Assembly (NCBI GenBank): GCA_964016885.1 | Contig: OZ024740.1 | Coordinates: 410,688,001 to 410,752,000 of the forward strand | From: Eledone cirrhosa | Taxonomy: Eukaryota | Direction: 5' to 3' | Length of the DNA stretch: 64,000 nt | Shown: positions 1 through 55,983 of the stretch, one piece after another | Layout of the letters: every line of letters starts with the position of its first letter | How positions within the stretch are numbered: position 1 is the first letter of the stretch | Notes under the pieces: generated by a model | Told to the model about the DNA's origin: nothing | Databases searched by the model: none | The model's input: only the letters and a program-made list of their open reading frames with translations | Made by a program: the position numbers and the translations under genes

Positions 1-3000
1 GGTGGTGGCATTGTTTTTGTTATTGCTGGTGGTGGTGGCATTGTTGTTGTTGTTGGTGGTGGTGGTGGTGGCATTGTTGTTGTTGTTATTGCTGGTGGTG
101 GTGGCATTGTTGTTGTTATTGCTGGTGGTGGTGGCATTGTTGTTGTTATTGCTGGTGGTGGTGGCATTGTTGTTATTGTTGCTGTTGGTGGTGGCATTGT
201 TGTTCTTATTGCTGGTGGTGGTGGCATTGTTGTTGTTGTTGCTGGTGGTGGTGGCATTGTTGTTGTTATTGGTGGTGGTGGTGGCATTGTTGTTGTTGTT
301 GCTGGTGGTGGTGGCATTGTTGTTGTTATTGCTGGTGGTGGTGGTATTGTTGTTGTTGTTATTGCTGGTGGTAGTGGCATTGTTGTTGTTGTTATTGCTG
401 GTGGTGGTGGCATTGTTGTTGTTGTTATTGCTGGTGGTGGTGGCATTGTTGTTGTTATTGCTGGTGGTGGTGGCATTGTTGTTGTTGTTGGTGGTGGTGG
501 TGGCATTGTTGTTGTTATTGCTGGTGGTGGTGGCATTGTTGTTGTTGTTGCTGTTGGTGGTGGCATTGTTGTCGTTATTGCTGGTGGTGGTGGCATTGTT
601 GTTGTTGTTGCTGGTGGTGGTGGCATTGTTGTTGTTGTTGCTGGTGGTGGTGGCATTGTTGTTGTTATTGGTGGTGGTGGTGGTGGCATTGTTGTTGTTG
701 TTATTGCTGGTGGTGGTGGCATTGTTGTTGTTATTGCTGGTGGTGGTGGCATTGTTGTTGTTATTGCTGGTGGTGGTGGCATTGTTGTTATTGTTGCTGT
801 TGGTGGTGGCATTGTTGTCGTTATTGCTGGTGGTGGTGGCATTGTTGTTGTTATTGCTGGTGGTGGTGGCATTGTTGTTGTTGTTGCTGGTGGTGGTGGC
901 ATTGTTGTTGTTGTTATTGCTGGTGGTGGTGGCATTGTTGTTGTTGTTATTGCTGGTGGTAGTGGCATTGTTGTTGTTGTTATTGCTGGTGGTGGTGGCA
1001 TTGTTGTTGTTATTGCTGGTGGTGGTGGCATTGTTGTTGTTGTTATTGCTGGTGGTGGTGGCATTGTTGTTGTTATTGGTGGTGGTGGTGGTGGCATTGT
1101 TGTTGTTGTTATTGCTGGTGGTGGTGGCATTGTTGTTGTTGTTGCTGGTGTTGGTGGCATTGTTGTTGTTATTGCTGGTGGTGGTGGTGGTGGCATTGTT
1201 GTTGTTATTGCTGGTGGTAGTGGCATTGTTGTTGTTGTTATTGCTGGTGGTGGTGGCATTGTTGTTGTTGTTATTGCTGGTGGTGGTGGCATTGTTGTTG
1301 TTGTTGCTGGTGGTGGTGGCATTGTTGTTATTGTTGCTGTTGGTGGTGGCATTGTTGTTGTTGTTGCTGGTGGTGGTGGCATTGTTGTTGTTGTTGCTGG
1401 TGGTGGTGGCATTGTTGTTGTTGTTGCTGGTGGTGGTGGCATTGTTGTTGTTATTGGTGGTGGTGGTGGTGGCATTGTTGTTGTTATTGCTGGTGGTGGT
1501 GGCATTGTTGTTGTTGTTGCTGGTGGTGGTGGCATTGTTGTTGTTATTGGTGGTGGTGGTGGTGGCATTGTTGTTGTTATTGGTGGTGGTGGTGGCATTG
1601 TTGTTGTTGTTGCTGGTGGTGGTGGCATTGTTGTTGTTATTGGTGGTGGTGGTGGCATTGTTGTTGTTGTTGCTGGTGGTGGTGGCATTGTTGTTGTTAT
1701 TGGTGGTGGTGGTGGCATTGTTGTTGTTGTTATTGCTGGTGGTGGTGGCATTGTTGTTGTTATTGTTGGTGGTGGTGGCATTGTTGTTGTTATTGGTGGT
1801 GGTGGTGGTGGCATTGTTGTTGTTATTGGTGGTGGTGGTGGCATTGTTGTTGTTGTTATTGCTGGTGGTGGTGGCATTGTTGTTGTTATTGTTGGTGGTG
1901 GTGGCATTGTTGTTGTTATTGGTGGTGGTGGTGGTGGCATTGTTGTTGTTATTGCTGGTGGTGGTGGCATTGTTGTTGTTGTTGCTGGTGGTGGTGGCAT
2001 TGTTGTTGTTGTTGCTGGTGGTGGTGGCATTGTTGTTGTTGTTGCTGGTGGTGGTGGCATTGTTGTTGTCGTTATTGCTGGTGGTGGTGGCATTGTTGTT
2101 GTTATTGCTGGTGGTGGTGGCATTGTTGTTGTTGTTGCTGGTGGTGGTGGCATTGTTGTTGTTGTTGCTGGTGGTGGTGGCATTGTTGTTGTTGTTGCTG
2201 GTGGTGGTGGCATTGTTGTTGTTGTTGCTGGTGGTGGTGGCATTGTTGTTGTTGTTGCTGGTGGTGGTGGCATTGTTGTTGTCGTTATTGCTGGTGGTGG
2301 TGGCATTGTTGTTGTTGTTGCTGGTGGTGGTGGCATTGTTGTTGTTGTTGCTGGTGGTGGTGGCATTGTTGTTGTTATTGCTGGTGGTGGTGGCATTGTT
2401 GTTGTTGTTGCTGGTGGTGGTGGCATTGTTGTTGTTGTTGCTGGTGGTGGTGGCATTGTTGTTGTTGTTGCTGGTGGTGGTGGCATTGTTGTTGTTATTG
2501 CTGGTGGTGGTGGCATTGTTGTTGTTGTTGCTGGTGGTGGTGGCATTGTTGTTGTTGTTGCTGGTGGTGGTGGCATTGTTGTTGTCGTTATTGCTGGTGG
2601 TGGTGGCATTGTTGTTGTTGTTGCTGGTGGTGGTGGCATTGTTGTTGTTGTTGCTGGTGGTGGTGGTGGCATTGTTGTTGTTGTTATTGCTGGTGGTAGT
2701 GGCATTGTTGTTGTTGTTATTGGTGGTGGTGGTGGCATTGTTGTTGTTATTGCTGGTGGTGGTGGCATTGTTGTTGTTATTGCTGGTGGTGGTGGCATTG
2801 TTGTTGTTGTTGCTGGTGGTGGTGGCATTGTTGTTGTTATTGCTGGTGGTGGTGGCATTGTTGTTGTTATTGCTGGTGGTGGTGGCATTGTTGTTGTTAT
2901 TGCTGGTGGTGGTGGCATTGTTGTTGTTATTGCTGGTGGTGGTGGCATTGTTGTTGTTATTGCTGGTGGTGGTGGCATTGTTGTTGTTGTTGCTGGTGGT

Positions 3001-6000
3001 GGTGGCATTGTTGTTGTTATTGCTGGTGGTGGTGGCATTGTTGTTGTTATTGCTGGTGGTGATGGCATTGTTGTTGTTATTGCTGGTGGTGGTGGCATTG
3101 TTTTTGTTATTGCTGGTGGTGGTGGCATTGTTGTTGTTGTTGCTGGTGGTGGTGGCATTGTTGTTGTTATTGCTGGTGGTGGTGGCATTGTTGTTGTTGT
3201 TGCTGGTGGTGGTGGCATTGTTTTTGTTATTGCTGGTGGTGGTGGCATTGTTGTTGTTATTGCTGGTGGTGGTGGCATTGTTGTTGTTGTTGTTGCTGGT
3301 GGTGGTGGCATTGTTGTTGTTGTTATTGCTGGTGGTGGTGGCATTGTTGTTGTTATTGCTGGTGGTGGTGGCATTGTTGTTGTTATTGCTGGTGGTGGTG
3401 GCATTGTTGTTGTTATTGCTGGTGGTGGTGGCATTGTTGTTGTTGTTGCTGGTGGTGGTGGCATTGTTTTTGTTATTGCTGGTGGTGGTGGCATTGTTGT
3501 TGTTGTTGCTGGTGGTGGTGGCATTGTTGTTGTTATTGCTGGTGGTGGTGGCATTGTTGTTGTTATTGCTGGTGGTGGTGGCATTGTTTTTGTTATTGCT
3601 GGTGGTGGTGGCATTGTTGTTGTTGTTGCTGGTGGTGGTGGCATTGTTGTTGTTATTGCTGGTGGTGGTGGCATTGTTTTTGTTATTGCTGGTGGTGGTG
3701 GCATTGTTGTTGTTGTTGCTGGTGGTGGTGGCATTGTTGTTGTTATTGGTGGTGGTGGTGGCATTGTTGTTGTTATTGGTGGTGGTGGTGGCATTGTTGT
3801 TGTTATTGCTGGTGGTGATGGCATTGTTGTTGTTATTGCTGGTGGTGGTGGCATTGTTTTTGTTATTGCTGGTGGTGGTGGCATTGTTGTTGTTGTTGCT
3901 GGTGGTGGTGGCATTGTTGTTGTTATTGGTGGTGGTGGTGGCATTGTTGTTGTTATTGGTGGTGGTGGTGGCATTGTTGTTGTTATTGCTGGTGGTGATG
4001 GCATTGTTGTTGTTATTGCTGGTGGTGGTGGCATTGTTTTTGTTATTGCTGGTGGTGGTGGCATTGTTGTTGTTGTTGCTGGTGGTGGTGGCATTGTTGT
4101 TGTTATTGCTGGTGGTGGTGGCATTGTTTTTGTTATTGCTGGTGGTGGTGGCATTGTTGTTGTTGTTGCTGGTGGTGGTGGCATTGTTGTTGTTGTTGCT
4201 GGTGGTGGTGGCATTGTTGTTGTTATTGCTGGTGGTGGTGGCATTGTTGTTGTTATTGCTGGTGGTGGTGGCATTGTTGTTGTTGTTGCTGGTGGTGGTG
4301 GCATTGTTGTTGTTATTGCTGGTGGTGGTGGCATTGTTGTTGTTATTGCTGGTGGTGGTGGCATTGTTTTTGTTATTGCTGGTGGTGGTGGCATTGTTGT
4401 TGTTGTTGCTGGTGGTGGTGGCATTGTTGTTGTTGTTGCTGGTGGTGGTGGCATTGTTGTTGTTATTGCTGGTGGTGGTGGCATTGTTGTTGTTATTGCT
4501 GGTGGTGGTGGTGGCATTGTTGTTGTTATTGCTGGTGGTGGTGGCATTGTTGTTGTTATTGGTGGTGGTGGTGGCATTGTTGTTGTTATTGCTGGTGGTG
4601 GTGGCATTGTTGTTGTTATTGCTGGTGGTGGTGGTGGCATTGTTGTTGTTATTGCTGGTGGTGGTGGCATTGTTGTTGTTATTGCTGGTGGTGGTGGCAT
4701 TGTTGTTGTTGTTGCTGGTGGTGGTGGCATTGTTGTTGTTATTGGTGGTGGTGGTGGCATTGTTGTTGTTATTGCTGGTGGTGGTGGCATTGTTGTTGTT
4801 ATTGCTGGTGGTGGTGGCATTGTTGTTGTTGTTATTGCTGGTGGTGGTGGCATTGTTGTTGTTATTGCTGGTGGTGGTGGCATTGTTGTTGTTGTTGCTG
4901 GAGGTGGTGGCATTGTTGTTGTTATTGCTGGTGGTGGTGGCATTGTTGTTGTTATTGCTGGTGGTGGTGGCATTGTTGTTGTTATTGGTGGTGGTGGTGG
5001 CATTGTTGTTGTTATTGCTGGTGGTGGTGGCATTGTTGTTGTTATTGCTGGTGGTGGTGGCATTGTTGTTGTTGTTATTGCTGGTGGTGGTGGCATTGTT
5101 GTTGTTATTGCTGGTGGTGGTGGCATTGTTGTTGTTATTGCTGGTGGTGGTGGCATTGTTGTTGTTGTTGCTGGAGGTGGTGGCATTGTTGTTGTTATTG
5201 CTGGTGGTGGTGGCATTGTTGTTGTTATTGCTGGTGGTGGTGGCATTGTTTTTGTTATTGCTGGTGGTGGTGGCATTGTTGTTGTTATTGCTGGTGGTGG
5301 TGGCATTGTTGTTGTTGTTGTTGCTGGTGGTGGTGGCATTGTTGTTGTTATTGCTGGTGGTGGTGGCATTGTTGTTGTTGTTATTGCTGGTGGTGGTGGC
5401 ATTGTTGTTGTTGTTGCTGGTGGTGGTGGCATTGTTGTTGTTATTGCTGGTGGTGGTGGCATTGTTGTTGTTGTTGCTGGAGGTGGTGGCATTGTTGTTC
5501 TTATTGCTGGTGGTGGTGGCATTGTTGTTGTTGTTGCTGGTGGTGGTGGCATTGTTGTTGTTGTTGCTGGAGGTGGTGGCATTGTTGTTCTTATTGCTGG
5601 TGGTGGTGGCATTGTTGTTGTTATTGCTGGTGGTGGTGGCATTGTTTTTGTTATTGCTGGTGGTGGTGGCATTGTTGTTGTTGTTGCTGGTGGTGGTGGC
5701 ATTGTTGTTGTTGTTGCTGGTGGTGGTGGCATTGTTGTTGTTATTGCTGGTGGTGGTGGCATTGTTGTTGTTGTTGCTGGTGGTGGTGGCATTGTTGTTG
5801 TTGTTGCTGGAGGTGGTGGCATTGTTGTTCTTATTGCTGGTGGTGGTGGCATTGTTGTTGTTATTGCTGGTGGTGGTGGCATTGTTTTTGTTATTGCTGG
5901 TGGTGGTGGCATTGTTGTTGTTGTTGCTGGTGGTGGTGGCATTGTTGTTGTTATTGCTGGTGGTGGTGGCATTGTTGTTGTTATTGCTGGTGGTGGTGGC

Positions 6001-9000
6001 ATTGTTGTTGTTGTTGCTGGTGGTGGTGGCATTGTTGTTGTTATTGCTGGTGGTGGTGGCATTGTTGTTGTTGTTGCTGGTGGTGGTGGCATTGTTGTTG
6101 TTATTGCTGGTGGTGGTGGCATTGTTGTTGTTATTGCTGGTGGTGGTGGCATTGTTGTTGTTATTGCTGGTGGTGGTGGCATTGTTTTTGTTATTGCTGG
6201 TGGTGGTGGCATTGTTTTTGTTATTGCTGGTGGTGGTGGCATTGTTGTTGTTATTGCTGGTGGTGGTGGCATTGTTGTTGTTGTTGCTGGTGGTGGTGGC
6301 ATTGTTGTTGTTGTTGCTGGTGGTGGTGGCATTGTTGTTGTTGTTGCTGGTGGTGGTGGCATTGTTGTTGTTATTGCTGGAGGTGGTGGCATTGTTGTTG
6401 TTATTGCTGGTGGTGGTGGCATTGTTTTTGTTATTGCTGGTGGTGGTGGCATTGTTTTTGTTATTGCTGGTGGTGGTGGCATTGTTGTTGTTGTTGCTGG
6501 TGGTGGTGGCATTGTTGTTCTTATTGCTGGTGGTGGTGGCATTGTTGTTGTTGTTGCTGGTGGTGGTGGCATTGTTGTTGTTATTGCTGGAGGTGGTGGC
6601 ATTGTTGTTGTTATTGCTGGTGGTGGTGGCATTGTTGTTGTTATTGGTGGTGGTGGTGGTGGCATTGTTGTTGTTATTGCTGGTGGTGGTGGCATTGTTG
6701 TTGTTATTGCTGGTGGTGGTGGCATTGTTTTTGTTATTGCTGGTGGTGGTGGCATTGTTTTTGTTATTGCTGGTGGTGGTGGCATTGTTGTTGTTATTGC
6801 TGGTGGTGGTGGCATTGTTGTTCTTATTGCTGGTGGTGGTGGCATTGTTTTTGTTATTGCTGGTGGTGGTGGCATTGTTGTTGTTGTTGCTGGTGGTGGT
6901 GGCATTGTTGTTGTTATTGCTGGTGGTGGTGGCATTGTTGTTGTTGTTGCTGGTGGTGGTGGCATTGTTGTTCTTATTGCTGGTGGTGGTGGCATTGTTT
7001 TTGTTATTGCTGGTGGTGGTGGCATTGTTGTTGTTGTTGCTGGTGGTGGTGGCATTGTTGTTGTTATTGCTGGTGGTGGTGGCATTGTTGTTCTTATTGC
7101 TGGTGGTGGTGGCATTGTTTTTGTTATTGCTGGTGGTGGTGGCATTGTTGTTGTTGTTGCTGGTGGTGGTGGCATTGTTGTTGTTGTTGCTGGTGGTGGT
7201 GGCATTGTTGTTGTTATTGCTGGTGGTGGTGGCATTGTTGTTGTTGTTGCTGGTGGTGGTGGCATTGTTGTTGTTATTGCTGGTGGTGGTGGCATGTTGT
7301 TGTTATTGGTGGTGGTGGTGGCATTGTTGTTGTTATTGCTGGTGGTGGTGGCATTGTTGTTGTTGTTATTGCTGGTGGTGGTGGCATTGTTGTTGTTATT
7401 GCTGGTGGTGGTGTCATTGTTGTTGTTATTGCTGGTGGTGGTGGCATTGTTGTTGTTATTGGTGGTGGTGGTGGCATTGTTGTTGTTATTGCTGGTGGTG
7501 GTGTCATTGTTGTTGTTGTTATTGCTGGTGGTGGTGGCATTGTTGTTGTTGTTATTGGTGGTGGTGGCATTGTTGTTGTTGTTATTGCTGTTGGTGGTGG
7601 CATTGTTGTTGTTATTGCTCTGTGGTGGTGGCATTGTTGTTGTTATTGGTGGTGGTGGTGGCATTGTTTTTGTTATTGCTGGTGGTGGTGGCATTGTTGT
7701 TGTTGTTGTTGCTGTTGGTGGTGGCATTGTTGTTGTTGTTATTGCTCTGTGGTGGTGGCATTGTTGTTGTTATTGGTGGTGGTGGTGGCATTGTTTTTGT
7801 TATTGCTGGTGGTGGTGGCATTGTTGTTGTTATTGCTCTGTGGTGGTGGCATTGTTGTTGTTGTTGTTGCTGTTGGTGGTGGCATTGTTGTTGTTATTGC
7901 TGGTGGTGGTGGTGGCATTGTTGTTGTTGTTATTGCTGGTGGTGGTGGCATTGTTGTTGTTGTTATTGGTGGTGGTGGCATTGTTGTTGTTGTTATTGCT
8001 GTTGGTGGTGGCATTGTTGTTGTTATTGCTCTGTGGTGGTGGCATTGTTGTTGTTATTGGTGGTGGTGGTGGCATTGTTTTTGTTATTGCTGGTGGTGGT
8101 GGCATTGTTGTTGTTGTTGTTGCTGTTGGTGGTGGCATTGTTGTTGTTGTTATTGCTCTGTGGTGGTGGCATTGTTGTTGTTATTGGTGGTGGTGGTGGC
8201 ATTGTTTTTGTTATTGCTGGTGGTGGTGGCATTGTTGTTGTTATTGCTCTGTGGTGGTGGCATTGTTGTTGTTGTTGTTGCTGTTGGTGGTGGCATTGTT
8301 GTTGTTATTGCTGGTGGTGGTGGTGGCATTGTTGTTGTTATTGCTGGTGGTGGTGGTGGCATTGCTGTTGTTATTGCTGGTGGTGGTGGCATTGTTGTTG
8401 TTGTTGTTGCTGTTGGTGGTGGCATTGTTGTTGTTATTGCTGGTGGTGGTGGTGGCATTGTTGTTGTTATTGCTGTTGGTGGTGGCATTGTTTTTGTTAT
8501 TGCTGGTGGTGGTGGCATTGTTGTTGTTGTTATTGCTGGTGGTGGTGGCATTGTTGTTGTTGTTGCTGGTGGTGGTGGCATTGTTGTTGTTATTGCTGGT
8601 GGTGGTGGCATTGTTGTTGTTGTTATTGCTGGTGGTGGTGGCATTGTTGTTGTTATTGCTGGTGGTGGTGGCATTGTTGTTGTTATTGCTGGTGGTGGTG
8701 GCATTGTTGTTGTTGTTATTGCTGGTGGTGGTGGCATTGTTGTTGTTATTGCTGGTGGTGGTGGTATTGTTGTTGTTATTGGTGGTGGTGGTGGTGGCAT
8801 TGTTGTTGTTGTTATTGCTGGTGGTGGTGTCATGTTGTTGTTATTGCTGGTGGTGGTGGCATTGTTGTTGTTGTTATTGCTGGTGGTGGTGGCATTGTTG
8901 TTGTTGTTATTGCTGGTGGTGGTGGCATTGTTGTTGTTGTTATTGCTGGTGGTGGTGGCATTGTTGTTGTTGTTATTGCTGGTGGTGGTGGCATTGTTGT

Positions 9001-9170
9001 TGTTGTTATTGCTGGTGGTGGTGGCATTGTTGTTGTTGTTATTGCTGGTGGTGGTGGCATTGTTGTTGTTATTGCTGGTGGTGGTGGCATTGTTGTTGTT
9101 GTTATTGCTGGTGGTGGTGGCATTGTTGTTGTTATTGCTGGTGGTGGTGGCATTGTTGTTGTTATAGCTG
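1..9170. repeat. Minisatellite, ~30-bp unit GGTGGTGGCATTGTTGTTGTTATTGCTGGT, running off the left window edge
   Basis: Hundreds of tandem units that vary in GTT/GGT triplet number and by point variants. The long ORFs over it are translations of the repeat. Confidence 0.97.
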
Positions 9171-29885: not shown

Positions 29886-30357
<472 letters not shown>

Positions 30358-30691
30358 CCGAGGGTCGGTATGCCTTAGCTGGGGCAGTGGGGTGAGCACT
30401 TGGCGTAAAAAATGGTTCAAGTAGGTTGTGTTTATCACCTCAGCCGGCCAAACTTACTCCCATGCCTCTCGGGCGCGGTACTGGCACCACTAAATTGGGT
30501 TGGGTGTGAAAGCGAGAGCTCAGTGCTATAACCAATGCAATGCTTGGATTGGACTGTTCTAAAGTCATATTCTTGCGGCTGGGTACCGCTAGCAAAAACC
30601 AATCACCCGAAGAAGCTCCAATTAACATACACCATGAATTCCTTCGAAAAGCCGGGTGAACGCTTTCGAAAAACAACTCGGGTCCGGCTAC

Positions 30692-31026
30692 GGTTCCGGA
30701 TTAGAGGAGTTCAGCCGTTATCGCTCAAAGGCAGCCTGGCATCACAGCTCTATCGAGCAAGCGCGCAAACTGTTGCTCTGATCTCGCGGTTACTCTCGTA
30801 CTGGACGGGATAGCCGTAGCCGAGTGGACGTTGCCGGGGGTGGCGGCGACTGCAAACTCTTCTAAAAGATGCTGCAGCCGCCACCGCCGCCGCCTACACG
30901 CAGGGCATCGGTAGGATAAAACTAACCTGTCTCACAACAGACTAAACCCAGCTCACGTTCCCTGTTAGTGGGTGAACAATCGAACGCTTTGCAAATTCTG
31001 CTTTGCAATGATAGGAAGAGCCGACA
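30692..31026 (-). pseudogene. Diverged 28S rRNA 3'-domain fragment
   Basis: AAAACTAACCTGTCTCAC..CTAAACCCAGCTCACGTTCCCT.TTAGTGGGTGAACAATC..CAATGATAGGAAGAGCCGACA is the antisense of the conserved LSU peptidyl-transferase region; CTCTCGTACT (sarcin-ricin loop AGTACGAGAG) at ~30793. Confidence 0.85.
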
Positions 31027-45285: not shown

Positions 45286-45671
45286 ATTGGATTGGTAGTA
45301 TCGGTAGAGGATCGGACGCTATGCTTTACAGCATAGAGTTATGGCCCTTCCTGATCTGAGTTCAAATCGCGCCGAGGTTAACTTTGCCTTTCATCCTTAC
45401 GGGGTCGATAAAATCAAGTACCAGTAATGTACTGGGATAATTGCTGGCTTTGTGCCAAAAGTAGAAAAAAATATTTTATATAACGTGGATTGGCAGTATC
45501 GGTAGAGAGTCGGACGCCATGCTATGCATTGTAGAGTTACAGCCTTTACAGTCTGAGTTCAAATTCCGCCGAGATTAACTTTGCCTTTCATCCTTACGGG
45601 GTCGATAAAATAAAGTACCTGTAATACAGTGCTATAATTGCTGGCCTTGTGCCAAAAGTAGAAACAATTAT
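45286..45671 (+). mobile_element. Two tandem family A SINEs (45286-45468, 45485-45671)
   Basis: Two full copies separated by ~16 bp. Confidence 0.85.
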
Positions 45672-46311
45672 TCTATATAACGCCTTTGTTCCCTCTGTGA
45701 ACCCTAATATTTTGAACTTGCTAACTCTGTACAGTAAGCGATTATTTCTTCATTTCTGCTGCCACTCTCAAATCCCTTTCCCCAGTAGTGTATCTCTTTG
45801 AAACTGCTAAAGAACATATCTTTTCTATTCATCCATTATCTCTAACGATTATACACTGAACACTATCCTTTTAACTTTGCAGTTTTCAATATAGCTTTCC
45901 TCAGACTAGCAGTAAAGTGAATGAACCTCCGTCAGATTCGGTTGTTCGATCAACTGAACTACAAACTCATTAAATGAGTGTGTAGCTAACTCAGTATTCC
46001 ACAGCTGTATGCACTCTTGACATACTCCTCAAACAAAATGTACGTTATACTATGTGAAAAGACTGAATATTGAAATACAGGTACAATTCTTCCATCGGCT
46101 TCTTTATTTGCTCAGGTTTGACTCCTTTTGAGGTCATCATAAAGAACAGTTCCCAAAGATGTGGTGAAGTGGTCTCAGCAATGAGAACGTCTTAAACATT
46201 CAGGTATGCTAACGATAAAGAAAACACAACCCATTTATATAGAATACTTTTACTTTAAGTAACTTACTTATACTTTATATATTCATTATTAGATATATAT
46301 TTTTTTTTTTA

Positions 46312-46620
46312 GGGCAGTGAATTGGCAATATCGGTAGAGGGTTGGACGCCATGCGTTCTAGCATAATTACGTCCCTTTACGGTCTGAGTTCAAATCCCGT
46401 CGAGGTTAACTTTGCCTTTCATCCTTACGGGGTCGATAAAATAAAGTACCAGTAATGTACTGGGTAATTGTTGGCCTTGTGCCAAAAGTAGAAACAATTA
46501 TTAGATATCTTTTTAAGGCAAGGTTAACTTTACCTTTCATCCTTAAGGGATCGATAAAATAAAGTACCAGTAATGCACCGGGTAATTGCTGGCCGTGTGC
46601 GAAAAGTAGAAACAATTATT
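46312..46620 (+). mobile_element. Family A SINE (46312-46503) plus tandem 3'-half copy (46519-46620)
   Basis: Full copy, then a repeat from AGGTTAACTTT to AGAAACAATTATTAGATAT. Confidence 0.85.
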
Positions 46621-48797
46621 AGATATATTTTATTATTGTAAAACTATAATTAGAACTACCTTATATCTGTCTTGGTGAAGAAATGAAACTTGCATGAAAC
46701 AAATTTACAGACATTTACAAAACGTAAATGTGATTAGTAACGAGTGAAAACAATTACTTCGAAATATCTCCAGTATCTTCTTCACCTACCTATAATTATG
46801 ACCGATAACTCTAACCAAAAATGGATAGATATGAACAGAAATAGGCGACTAGAAAATGGATATTGCTTGTGAATACAACGTGAATAAAGATTATATTACA
46901 ATTGTCTAATGGGTTTGCCACTGATTTCTAGTCAATACACAGCCAGAGAAAACAAAATCACACAAAGAAAGCATGCTGTTTGTAGTATAAAACGATATTT
47001 CACTCGGTGAATATTGAATGTAACGAAGTTGTTAATACGATATTGTTATAATAATTATTTGTTTTGAAGACATCTTTCTGTATTTAATCTCTCAAGAATT
47101 ATGTTTATCAAATTAAATATCATTTCTAATATTGTAATCTCTATCCTTCTCCCTGAAAAGAATTAACAGCTTTTAGTGTCAGAGAGTGGTGAGCTCTGCC
47201 AAGTTTAATAAGCTAAGACGGTACATCTAAGACTCAATCATTCCGGGCCAAATGAAGTGAGCGCCCCCATAACTCCACCGAATTATATAGAAGAATTATG
47301 TCATTATGTTTTATGTGTTTCGGGGATATTGTTGATATTGTAAGATATCTCATGTTATGGGAATTATATTAACCTATTCCTCATTTCCTGTGTTTGATTA
47401 GTGATAGCGTCTTATATAATTTCCTCTGTCTGCTTGATAAGGGTTGCACCGTTGGTTGTTTTGTAAGTCAACAACTGTGTTACCTCATATAATTTATATA
47501 TAATGCGTATTTAGAATTATAGAAAACATCTAGACATCGTGGTTGATACTCATACTTTCATGGTGAAAAAATATCGATATCATCCCAATACTCAATATAT
47601 TTATAATATATTTCAATATGACTGCTATTTTATCGATATTGTTTCATTTAAAATGTCTTTTTCCTCCCTTGCTTCTATGTATTTATTCCCTTTACACAGA
47701 CGCACATTTTAATACAAAGACAGAAGCACCTTGTTTCATGTTTTCTTCTGTATAAATATATTTGAGTTGTTTTTCTCCAAGTATCGTATGGATTCTCATA
47801 ATTATTTGGGATTTTTCTTTTAATGAATTTATATTAAACAGTGAATAGTTTCCTTTACACATTTTTATGTAGAAATTTTCTAATCGATTATACTTTCAAG
47901 TTTACAGATTATTTTCACCGCATCAGAATATCATAATCTGTAATGGAAAATAATATTTCATAAACTATATTTTAAAATCTTACAATTTTCTCGTCATTGG
48001 AATATATTTTATGTGAATTGCTTTTTTTCCAATGAAAACTAAACGAAGATATCGATTTGTTTTTAGTTCAATATATTAATAATGGGCACTTTCCTGTCGC
48101 AAGATATAGGAAGGAAAAGATTATGTATAAATTTTACATAAGCCGTTTAAAACAATTTTTCGTAGAACAATTCCAGTTCAAAGGCCAGTGACCGGCAAAT
48201 AAGCATTTGGAACCAATTTAGTGGGCGGATGTGCCAAATAACTTCCGTTATGACGGAAATGCATTTAATTAAATTCTCCACTGAAGGATGCAGGAGTTAT
48301 TGTGCATGACAAACGAAACTTGCTGCCATTCAGGAACACAAAGACCTATTATAAGTCGTTTAAAAGATATTCTAAACAGGACTGTACATTTTGACTCTAA
48401 GTCAAAATCCAGTCGTTATATGCTAAGGTCTACCAAATCAAGAGATACTGAGACAAAACATACTGTATTTGCGGATAATCTAAAGAACTACACTAATAAT
48501 GCGCACAATCCTGAGAAACAGCTGGGCTTAACATTTTCGGTTGACATAGAGATAGAATTTGGTGAAACAAAATGTTCATGAATTTCATTATGCGTTAGAA
48601 GCTAATTTCGTTATAGCAATGTATAAAATAATTAAAACTAAGTTAACATAAATATACATTCAGTGATGTTTACCGTGTGAAAACTATCGACTATTACTAA
48701 AATAATATATTTGGCCTATTGCGAGTGTAGCAGGAATTTAAAAAGAAAGAAAAAAATGAATAAATGAGGGGAGGAACGAAAGTGAGAGTGAGTCGTA

Positions 48798-51543: not shown

Positions 51544-52132
51544 AGATGAAATTCACTCTACGAACGTGAAAGAGAATCACTGCTATATCAAAGTTGCCTG
51601 CAGTAAGCAGGGACTTTACGTGAGGGTGAATGGTATCTCTTTTGCCAAAGCACAATGGTAAATGGCGGCAAAAATTCGAAATATAATTCAATTCAGTAGC
51701 CATAATTTAGATCTCCATTAGCTTGGGAAAAATAAAAACGGAATTGTACAGAATAGTACAGAAACACAGAGGTAAAAAGGTAATTAATACAATTTACTTA
51801 CGTTACTGGTTGTCTGTTAACTGGGAGAATATATATATTGACGAGGTTAAAAAATTAGCCTTAATCCTGTAATATATATATATATATATATAATATATTT
51901 ATAAACACACAGATACATGCGGACACACACATATATACATGAATGCATCCGCACCCAACTGTGAGTTAAGGGTGCCAACTTCACCGATGTTGCTCAATGA
52001 ATGACTGGGACAGACCAATTCAGTTTGAACCAGACTGAACCAGTATCAGAGTTAAAAATACATTATGAAGAGAGAAGAAACATTTAGATATAATTAGTAA
52101 TAAAATGTATCATACCTAAACTGCTCCTAAAT

Positions 52133-52220
52133 TCCTCGACTACGTAGTTTCGTGGCATAAACAAAAACAATATATCAAAGATATAGAGTCCTTGCGAGGT
52201 CTGCCGACTTATCAAGAGGA
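52133..52220 (-). ncRNA. Type I hammerhead ribozyme, U3-A8 core (also 52724-52811, 53315-53402)
   Basis: TCCTC-TTGATAA-GT(c)GGCA..long loop..TGCCAC-GAAA-CTACGTAG-TC-GAGGA on the minus strand; GUC cleavage triplet. Confidence 0.85.
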
Positions 52221-53952
52221 TACCTCATTTTACTAGTCTCAAGAACGCGTCTACACGACGTGAGAAAGAATCCCAAAAGGCGGAGGGGGAGATAGTCACG
52301 CGATATAACGGTCGAGAAACAGAGCTAAGCCTCTTATAACCACGAAGAAAATACCACGGAGGCGGAGGGGGTATTCATATCGAGGCCGCAGAAGAGGTAG
52401 TGAAGAAGGCGAGAAGTATGAGTAATGGAAGCTTTCCAGTTGTCCCCACACTTCAAAGATTGCTCGACCAGAGGGAGTTATTAATATATTTATAAACACA
52501 CAGATACATGCGGACACACACATATATACATGAATGCATCCGCACCCAACTGTGAGTTAAGGGTGCCAATTTCACCGATGTTGCTCAATGAATGACTGGG
52601 ACAGACCAATTCAGTTTGAACCAGACTGAACCAGTATCAGAGTTAAAAATACATTATGAAGAGAGAAGAAACATTTAGATATAATTAGTAATAAAATGTA
52701 TCATACCTAAACTGCTCCTAAATTCCTCGACTACGTAGTTTCGTGGCATAAACAAAAACAATATATCAAAGATATAGAGTCCTTGCGAGGTCTGCCGACT
52801 TATCAAGAGGATACCTCATTTTACTAGTCTCAAGAACGCGTCTACACGACGTGAGAAAGAATCCCAAAAGGCGGAGGGGGAGATAGTCACGCGATATAAC
52901 GGTCGAGAAACAGAGCTAAGCCTCTTATAACCACGAAGAAAATACCACGGAGGCGGAGGGGGTATTCATATCGAGGCCGCAGAAGAGGTAGTGAAGAAGG
53001 CGAGAAGTATGAGTAATGGAAGCTTTCCAGTTGTCCCCACACTTCAAAGATTGCTCGACCAGAGGGAGTTATTAATATATTTATAAACACACAGATACAT
53101 GCGGACACACACATATATACATGAATGCATCCGCACCCAACTGTGAGTTAAGGGTGCCAACTTCACCGATGTTGCTCAATGAATGACTGGGACAGACCAA
53201 TTCAGTTTGAACCAGACTGAACCAGTATCAGAGTTAAAAATACATTATGAAGAGAGAAGAAACATTTAGATATAATTAGTAATAAAATGTATCATACCTA
53301 AACTGCTCCTAAATTCCTCGACTACGTAGTTTCGTGGCATAAACAAAAACAATATATCAAAGATATAGAGTCCTTGCGAGGTCTGCCGACTTATCAAGAG
53401 GATACCTCATTTTACTAGTCTCAAGAACGCGTCTACACGACGTGAGAAAGAATCCCAAAAGGCGGAGGGGGAGATAGTCACGCGATATAACGGTCGAGAA
53501 ACAGAGCTAAGCCTCTTATAACCACGAAGAAAATACCACTGGTTCAGTCTGGTTCAAACTGAATTGGTCTGTCCCAGTCATTCATTGAGCAACATCGGTG
53601 AAGTTGGCACCCTTAACTCACAGTTGGGTGCGGATGCATTCATGTATATATGTGTGTGTCCGCATGTATCTGTGTGTTTATAAATATATTAATAACTCCC
53701 TCTGGTCGAGCAATCTTTGAAGTGTGGGGACAACTGGAAAGCTTCCATTACTCATACTTCTCGCCTTCTTCACTACCTCTTCTGCGGCCTCGATATGAAT
53801 ACCCCCTCCGCCTCCGTGGTATTTTCTTCGTGGTTATAAGAGGCTTAGCTCTGTTTCTCGACCGTTATATCGCGTGACTATCTCCCCCTCCGCCTTTTGG
53901 GATTCTTTCTCACGTCGTGTAGACGCGTTCTTGAGACTAGTAAAATGAGGTA

Positions 53953-54040
53953 TCCTCTTGATAAGTCGGCAGACCTCGCAAGGACTCTATATCTTTGATA
54001 TATTGTTTTTGTTTATGCCACGAAACTACGTAGTCGAGGA
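53953..54040 (+). ncRNA. Type I hammerhead ribozyme, U3-A8 core (also 54544-54631, 55135-55222)
   Basis: Stem I TCCTC/GAGGA; core UUGAUAA + GAAA; stem III perfect palindrome ACTACGTAGT; predicted cleavage after C54035. Confidence 0.85.
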
Positions 54041-55291
54041 ATTTAGGAGCAGTTTAGGTATGATACATTTTATTACTAATTATATCTAAATGTTTCTTCT
54101 CTCTTCATAATGTATTTTTAACTCTGATACTGGTTCAGTCTGGTTCAAACTGAATTGGTCTGTCCCAGTCATTCATTGAGCAACATCGGTGAAGTTGGCA
54201 CCCTTAACTCACAGTTGGGTGCGGATGCATTCATGTATATATGTGTGTGTCCGCATGTATCTGTGTGTTTATAAATATATTAATAACTCCCTCTGGTCGA
54301 GCAATCTTTGAAGTGTGGGGACAACTGGAAAGCTTCCATTACTCATACTTCTCGCCTTCTTCACTACCTCTTCTGCGGCCTCGATATGAATACCCCCTCC
54401 GCCTCCGTGGTATTTTCTTCGTGGTTATAAGAGGCTTAGCTCTGTTTCTCGACCGTTATATCGCGTGACTATCTCCCCCTCCGCCTTTTGGGATTCTTTC
54501 TCACGTCGTGTAGACGCGTTCTTGAGACTAGTAAAATGAGGTATCCTCTTGATAAGTCGGCAGACCTCGCAAGGACTCTATATCTTTGATATATTGTTTT
54601 TGTTTATGCCACGAAACTACGTAGTCGAGGAATTTAGGAGCAGTTTAGGTATGATACATTTTATTACTAATTATATCTAAATGTTTCTTCTCTCTTCATA
54701 ATGTATTTTTAACTCTGATACTGGTTCAGTCTGGTTCAAACTGAATTGGTCTGTCCCAGTCATTCATTGAGCAACATCGGTGAAGTTGGCACCCTTAACT
54801 CACAGTTGGGTGCGGATGCATTCATGTATATATGTGTGTGTCCGCATGTATCTGTGTGTTTATAAATATATTAATAACTCCCTCTGGTCGAGCAATCTTT
54901 GAAGTGTGGGGACAACTGGAAAGCTTCCATTACTCATACTTCTCGCCTTCTTCACTACCTCTTCTGCGGCCTCGATATGAATACCCCCTCCGCCTCCGTG
55001 GTATTTTCTTCGTGGTTATAAGAGGCTTAGCTCTGTTTCTCGACCGTTATATCGCGTGACTATCTCCCCCTCCGCCTTTTGGGATTCTTTCTCACGTCGT
55101 GTAGACGCGTTCTTGAGACTAGTAAAATGAGGTATCCTCTTGATAAGTCGGCAGACCTCGCAAGGACTCTATATCTTTGATATATTGTTTTTGTTTATGC
55201 CACGAAACTACGTAGTCGAGGAATTTAGGAGCAGTTTAGGTATGATACATTTTATTACTAATTATATCTAAATGTTTCTTCTCTCTTCATA

Positions 55292-55326
<35 letters not shown>

Positions 55327-55667: not shown

Positions 55668-55790
<123 letters not shown>

Positions 55791-55983
55791 CAGGATTAAT
55801 GCTAATTTATTAACCTCGTCAATATATATATTCTCCCAGTTAACAGACAACCAGTAACGTAAGTAAATTGTATTAATTTCCTTTTTACCTCTGTGTTTCT
55901 GTACTATTATATACATACATACGTACTATTATATACATACATACATACATACACACACACACATATATATATAATTAGATGTG

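Follow-up and report, generated by a model that had tools for sequence, protein, structure and literature searches.

Head-to-head hammerhead units in Eledone cirrhosa: a probable retrozyme insertion primed at two fixed sites on one RNA unit

A (TA)n microsatellite in the genome of Eledone cirrhosa holds an insertion of 591-bp hammerhead units in two head-to-head arms. We analysed it within a stretch of 64,000 nucleotides (the window) and together with related loci across the assembly. It is probably a young non-coding hammerhead retrozyme, primed by a Penelope-type dimer at two sites (A and B) on a single RNA unit that is likely to be circular. What makes it interesting is the pattern across the family rather than this one locus.

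The features of the insertion are collected in Table 1. Position 1 of the unit was defined as the first base 3' of the predicted cut, C17 lying at 54035, 54626 and 55217 on the plus strand and at 52138, 52729 and 53320 on the minus strand. Re-measurement reproduced exactly the coordinates, lengths and senses of the arms and the AC overlap between them that a first-pass annotation had reported. It also bore out that the four ends fall at four different unit positions (372, 247, 94 and 80), none of them at the cut, and that both sense 3' ends run into (TA)n. We take the insertion to be very young because its six units differ at a single base (52570). At unit position 236 all six units, in both arms, carry the minority allele of the family.

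Table 1. Features of the head-to-head insertion, in window coordinates.
Feature	Position	Strand	Basis
Left (TA)n target remnant	51872-51890		
Left arm, 1649 bp, 2.79 units (unit 372 to 247), outer end at site B	51891-53539	-	
Long hairpin predicted at unit 166-237, immediately 5' of site B (mean pair probability 0.96)	51901-51972	-	Fold of family majority unit as circle
Type I hammerhead motif, U3-A8 core variant, palindromic helix III; predicted cut after 52138	52133-52220	-	
Hammerhead motif, left arm copy 2	52724-52811	-	
Hammerhead motif, left arm copy 3	53315-53402	-	
Head-to-head junction of two 5' ends (372/94), 2-nt overlap, unique in genome	53538-53539		
Right arm, 1760 bp, 2.98 units (unit 94 to 80), outer end at site A	53538-55297	+	
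Hammerhead motif, right arm copy 1; predicted cut after 54035	53953-54040	+	
Hammerhead motif, right arm copy 2	54544-54631	+	
Hammerhead motif, right arm copy 3	55135-55222	+	
Long hairpin predicted at unit 10-71, immediately 5' of site A (mean pair probability 0.96)	55227-55288	+	Fold of family majority unit as circle
Right (TA)n target remnant	55298-55322		

The 26-mer across the junction occurs once in the genome. Arithmetic on the depth table of read run X3 requires a contig of depth 19 over 53540-53566 that extends leftward; none of the 24 read-derived pieces listed, of 174, spanned the window junction. Ten other contigs at single-copy depth in run X1 join minus to plus arms (runs X1-X3 represent one sample, maybe the assembled one), and the element is present in ten raw reads of another sample. 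No empty (TA)n allele was seen in the read contigs, which break at (TA)n. A target-site duplication is unreadable inside (TA)n, and the 113 loci described below showed no general flank duplication. At the window locus itself, a 127-bp piece of a low-copy repeat (27 genome matches) flanks the whole site at 51745-51871 and 55789-55915. The two copies form a tail-to-tail inverted duplication of 96% identity, each abutting (TA)n, which predates the insertion. Similar short tail-to-tail duplications surround (TA)n at two other loci (L172 and L132) and perhaps reflect snap-back repair at earlier TA breaks; as a general part of the insertion mechanism, flank duplication was ruled out across the 113 loci.

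The 3.0-Gb assembly contains 7,277 exact ribozyme cores, and copies 99-100% identical are spread over many contigs. We compiled 73 loci near the haplotype of the window (sample 1), a set biased to full units and one young subfamily (395 exact pattern matches). Because of this bias a second sample was drawn, taking along contig C1, in genome order, the first 40 core-bearing loci that were new. One segmentally repeated locus (L082/L083), a duplicate copy in L137 and five microsatellite-like matches of 23-44 nt were dropped before counting. Sense 3' ends lay at site A or site B in 176 of 181 cases (113 loci), nearly all running into (TA)n, with 117/119 arms of at least 45 nt in sample 1 and 59/62 arms in sample 2. 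Site A lies ca. 80 nt after the cut (mostly 74-81) and site B ca. 245 nt after it (mostly 241-247), the outer ends wobbling by a few bases. The earlier proposal that priming took place at an arbitrary point of the RNA is thus not borne out: the 3' ends are fixed at two sites, one per arm. Among 66 head-to-head insertions, 61 paired A with B, none paired B with B, one paired A with A and four had one off-site end; the probability of at most one same-site pair in 62 is 1e-17. The lone A+A locus (L093) has arms of different haplotype and a TA-like remnant between them. The head-to-head form was found at 22 of the 40 loci in ordered sample 2 and is the norm of the family, the window locus being ordinary within it; roughly half of all loci are single 5'-truncated arms. 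AT-rich matches had also been noted where the ends merge into (TA)n. Their role in priming is at most partial, since site A complements (TA)n little (5/10). TA-likeness was ruled out as the selector of the end sites: the best TA-like 10-mer of the unit ends at 207 and is used by no real arm.

Plotting end positions on the monomer had been recommended, with dispersed ends taken to support a circular template and fixed termini shared by all loci to point to a DNA transposon or satellite. The outcome is divided, the inner ends being dispersed and the outer ends fixed at A and B; the fixity is that of a Penelope footprint with two start sites. That the arrangement arose at the DNA level, as a fold-back transposon or a satellite with fixed termini and central deletions, or is an assembly artefact, we regard as the least probable of the explanations considered. 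The fixed outer ends would suit a DNA-level origin, but A and B are different sequences rather than one inverted terminal sequence, the ends wobble, and about half of the loci are single truncated arms. In addition, junctions vary between loci and variant spectra are strand-biased (see below). An artefact finds some room in the window junction being supported by depth arithmetic in X3; against it stand the single-copy-depth contigs of X1 and the reads of the other sample, and chimeric fold-back reads would not yield the A+B rule.

The same pairing was observed in Penelope-like elements (PLEs) of this genome. Of 10,597 GIY-YIG candidates, 150 were scored and 20 fetched, several of which carried long frames with a reverse transcriptase (RT), a CX4CxxC linker and GIY-YIG. 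One open frame of 938 aa gave RVT_1 (below cut-off) and GIY-YIG matches and contains the linker. By RT, linker and GIY-YIG these elements resemble the Neptune/Nematis type as described in the accessible text of PMC8557442. Three autonomous RT plus GIY-YIG families end in (TA)n at two sites 50-70 nt apart, and 20 of their 24 head-to-head loci, read by eye, were A+B; of the other four, one was cut by the locus end, two had an off-site end and one (L047) was possibly B+B. Short arms of PLE family f1 have a fixed 5' stop (18/25 within 20 nt), unlike the retrozyme, and show, as a control, what a template with a genuine 5' end gives. Short head-to-head f1 derivatives with fixed 5' ends are common, and young Neptune/Nematis-type families with minimal hammerheads and two end sites were noted at L105:2273-7731, L108, L120, L129 and L156. 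A sister retrozyme (L165-L176, e.g. L172:1262-1708; 1,649 candidates) shares ca. 70-80% identity and has a unit of ca. 580 bp with the same ribozyme core, end sites and hammerhead fold, the helix II extension being changed. Twelve of its loci were fetched and all nine head-to-head ones were A+B, the query having forced one arm past A. Comparison of the unit with the 20 PLE loci for homology to an autonomous pLTR gave only matches of 14-28 nt (E 0.4 or worse), and none of 40 core-bearing loci had an autonomous element attached to the core. An autonomous partner may lie among the scored candidates beyond these 20. At L172 (G000:C5:104258188-104261353, ca. 300-1710), the 3' part of an autonomous PLE is joined head-to-head to a sister-retrozyme arm through a short overlap without TA, both arms ending at B-type sites. 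This chimera may be the single lead to a partner enzyme; alternatively, it may be an insertion into an older copy.

The two arms of a locus share one haplotype. At sites polymorphic between loci, arms in sample 1 were discordant at 0 of 676 sites (41 pairs), compared with 13.7% after re-pairing (minimum 9.6% in 2000 shuffles); in sample 2, discordance was found at 2 of 179 informative sites (16 pairs) against 20.6% after re-pairing. Thirteen locus-private variants, in ten loci, were fixed in every unit of both arms. These results, along with the end positions, support the earlier reading that two target-primed cDNAs grew from either side of a cut in (TA)n and were joined at their far ends. They make it highly improbable that the sides of the break were primed on two different RNA molecules, a course that would demand a single source gene in each cell and leave the pairing rule to be explained separately; the absence of B+B among 66 pairs also argues against it. 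Mixed products may exist nonetheless, as the PLE/sister-retrozyme chimera at L172 (one case) indicates.

Identical arms would equally be predicted if one cDNA or antisense RNA had folded back and copied itself, the self-priming model favoured for the head-to-head junctions of Penelope palindromes in the accessible text of PMC3846280. Three junctions are exactly symmetric, and one clear non-fixed variant was seen once per arm (L099), in line with this model. In such a process, however, the copy must fit inside the template arm, which is impossible in 17 of 61 A+B loci and excluded at the window locus by arm lengths of 1649 and 1760. Further, 13 variants in the zone that would have to be copied are missing from the other arm, although some may be later mutations. 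We therefore consider self-copying a very improbable source of the arms, and return to two cDNAs primed on a single RNA unit.

Variant spectra differed between changes fixed in every unit and changes seen in one unit. For this comparison L093 was excluded, as were sample 2 copies below 95% identity (34/40 loci kept), and polarity was set by the majority allele. On the sense strand, A>G made up 18 of 52 fixed but 4 of 97 single-unit variants in sample 1 (p 1e-6), and 15 of 35 against 4 of 47 in sample 2 (p 4e-4); six of the 15 sample 2 sites recur from sample 1, so that the samples are partly dependent. A G on the 5' side was found at 0/18 and 1/15 of the fixed A>G sites, compared with 28 of 132 adenosines. 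A 3' G at 8/18 sites in sample 1 was not repeated in sample 2 (3/15). The fixed A>G sites that recur are 242, 277, 357, 395, 436, 537 and 547, of which 277, 395 and 537 were seen on different haplotypes. Scarcity of a 5' G is an ADAR preference according to the accessible part of PMC11019741, and the fixed A>G bias with few 5' G looks as if it came from ADAR editing of one RNA unit; polymerase error may be its source instead. Single-unit variants lean towards T>C and G>A on the sense strand (42/58 transitions, p 0.006). This lean is expected of wobble errors by an RT on sense RNA.

An RNA-level change present in every unit of both arms would mean that one unit was read repeatedly, and this forms the main argument for a circle. 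Private variants in all covered units at 21 of 74 insertions, combined with 44 fixed haplotypes in 72 loci, likewise call for a one-unit bottleneck. The template was read past the ribozyme site several times, as had been proposed at the outset (110 of 119 arms cross it), and was most likely a circle. Alternating variants that would point to a dimeric circle were not found, the two repeated variants of L050 lying in adjacent units.

Inner (5') ends were dispersed (Rayleigh p 0.18, 180 ends), with an excess at unit 355-414 (37/180, chi-square p 0.002) that includes the left arm of the window; there was no excess at the ribozyme cut (13/180 within 15 nt, p 0.13). Junctions in sample 1 had overlaps of 0-5 nt in 37/44 cases and short insertions in 7/44, and 4/63 junctions were near-symmetric (p 0.016). 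The excess and the symmetric junctions may reflect a minority of insertions whose template was a linear RNA with a 5' end, or else pausing of the RT. Both are counterpoints to a pure circle, as is a weak helix III, and they are among the observations that would favour a linear, uncleaved multimeric transcript of a homogeneous array, copied by the same enzyme from the same two sites with dimer geometry alone setting the pairing. The accessible text of PMC11167929 reports that PLEs act in vitro mainly on uncleaved RNA and that both strands share start sites in bulk. According to the text available of PMC4209133, a short palindromic helix III cleaves poorly as a monomer. Arrays of 5-7 units do occur in the family. 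On such a template, however, edits would fall on individual units, whereas A>G is frequent among fixed variants and rare among single-unit ones. The one-unit bottleneck stands against it as well, and 5' ends do not pile up at one point as in family f1. A linear multimer is thus in our view unlikely, and a single circular unit remains the preferred template.

Each unit contains a predicted type I hammerhead motif with the U3-A8 core variant, known from PLE ribozymes in the accessible text of PMC4209133, and a palindromic helix III. The hammerhead core with helices I-III was modelled at -21.5 kcal/mol compared with -22.6 kcal/mol for the unconstrained fold, a cost of ca. 1 kcal/mol. The window gave no Rfam hammerhead match at either threshold, and a weak mir-268 match on the hairpin at site A (E 0.012, below cut-off) was taken as chance. 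Folded as a circle, the unit is highly self-paired (z = -5.7, 40 shuffles), and a long predicted hairpin ends a few bases 5' of each of the sites A and B. The only ORF of at least 50 aa is a putative 75-aa frame, one per unit, and the unit lacks the single ORF with RT and GIY-YIG that characterizes an autonomous PLE. It has no LTR and a GC content of 41-43%. None of the RNA read sets among the runs listed carried the unit. A 621-nt contig of run X4 is compatible equally with a circle and with tandem DNA.

By its sequence the family, known here from DNA alone, is a non-LTR retrozyme. With metazoan non-LTR retrozymes, as described in the accessible text of PMC7229834 and 10.64898/2026.07.22.740005, it shares a non-coding tandem unit with GC below 50% and one type I hammerhead each, a self-paired fold, dispersed short arrays and a genome that also contains PLEs. 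For retrozymes, the same two texts propose that a PLE RT copies a circle by the rolling-circle route. The unit of 591 nt compares with 170-400 nt in PMC7229834 and 51-972 nt in 10.64898/2026.07.22.740005. Head-to-head arms, two fixed 3' ends and evidence for a shared template are seen here but not in the available text of either source; the word 'inverted' has no occurrence in that of PMC7229834. Neptune/Nematis-type PLEs, in the accessible text of PMC8557442, PMC3846280 and PMC11167929, share a 5'-truncated inverted copy at the 5' end, a tail confined to one end and AT-rich or (TA)n targets, as well as the U3-A8 hammerhead variant (PMC4209133, accessible text). Both also have two internal RT starts downstream of the ribozyme cut, the first at ca. 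85-92 nt in PAc, as far as the text available goes, and at 80 here. In contrast to PLEs, the family has no RT/EN ORF, its sites are spaced by 165 nt (30-40 nt in the PLE text available) and its arms run over several units. Neither the one-site-per-arm rule nor the single template appears in the PLE texts in their accessible form.

Twin priming of L1 has in common with the present case two primers of one target site on one RNA, a head-to-head product and short microhomology at the junction. In L1, one start is at the poly(A) end and the other at an internal site that varies, and the arms do not overlap on the RNA. The two sites of the present family are internal and fixed, and in 16 of 61 A+B loci each arm is longer than one unit.

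In the mechanism we favour, the retrozyme unit would be transcribed, cleave itself and be ligated into a 591-nt RNA circle, and ADAR would edit adenosines of this single unit. A Penelope-type RT-endonuclease acting in trans, probably as a dimer, would nick both strands of (TA)n, and one cDNA would be primed at each of the sites A and B. Both enzymes would then circle about three times with strand displacement before the far ends of the cDNAs were joined. One A and one B per circle would explain the missing A+A and B+B insertions. The accessible text of PMC11167929 describes a PLE protein that nicks both strands and extends them, with two internal start sites bounding a 'tail', and is predicted to be a dimer. 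Cleavage and the circle are, for their part, predictions from sequence, and eight of nine Xenopus retrozyme dimers showed no cleavage in vitro. We further put forward, as a tentative idea with a little less than an even chance of being right, a general Penelope-type rule: a dimer would bind one RNA at two hairpin-marked sites and copy it from both target strands. When the RNA is a circle, double rolling-circle insertions would follow, in which host A-to-I edits would be fixed in every unit and drive the heritable evolution of the family.

Inverted PLE copies, their one-sided tails and the integration of retrozymes from circles are open questions in the accessible text of PMC8557442, PMC11167929 and PMC7229834. 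The family offers thousands of natural reaction products under a strict rule, namely one A arm, one B arm and one haplotype. This rule separates models, speaks against self-priming and tells in vitro work which RNA sites and which target to use, and the disputed insertion mode of retrozymes becomes directly testable. The A>G imprint would offer RNA edits a way into germline DNA. No statement of the one-site-per-arm rule, a shared template or fixed edits in retrozymes was found in the openly accessible literature, and the part of the supplementary text of PMC11167929 available contains no terms for a pairing rule or editing.

Several observations lie beside this argument. At L082/L083 (G000:C1:166374500-166393900), insertion and flank form a tandem array of at least three copies that runs up to an assembly gap, the unit number shifting from 3 to more than 5, a secondary expansion towards a satellite. 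Much of the unit is present in near-identical form in runs labelled as other organisms (X4, X5 and X7-X14), with the 621-nt contig in X4 and, in X5, one of 577 nt near the family majority; this could be low-level carry-over of a high-copy repeat or true sharing. In run X6, two contigs leave the element near unit 22 (window 52116) into unrelated sequence beside a splice-donor-like motif, with exonisation in a host transcript as one possible origin. Elsewhere in the window, two-copy tandem repeats of 197 and 118 bp at 45288-45682 and 46403-46631 resemble a SINE-type element, and dispersed 28S rRNA fragments at 30220-31026 adjoin an (AT)n tract. Positions 1-9170 consist of ca. 299 copies of a 30-bp G+T-rich unit that could be a coding repeat on the minus strand.
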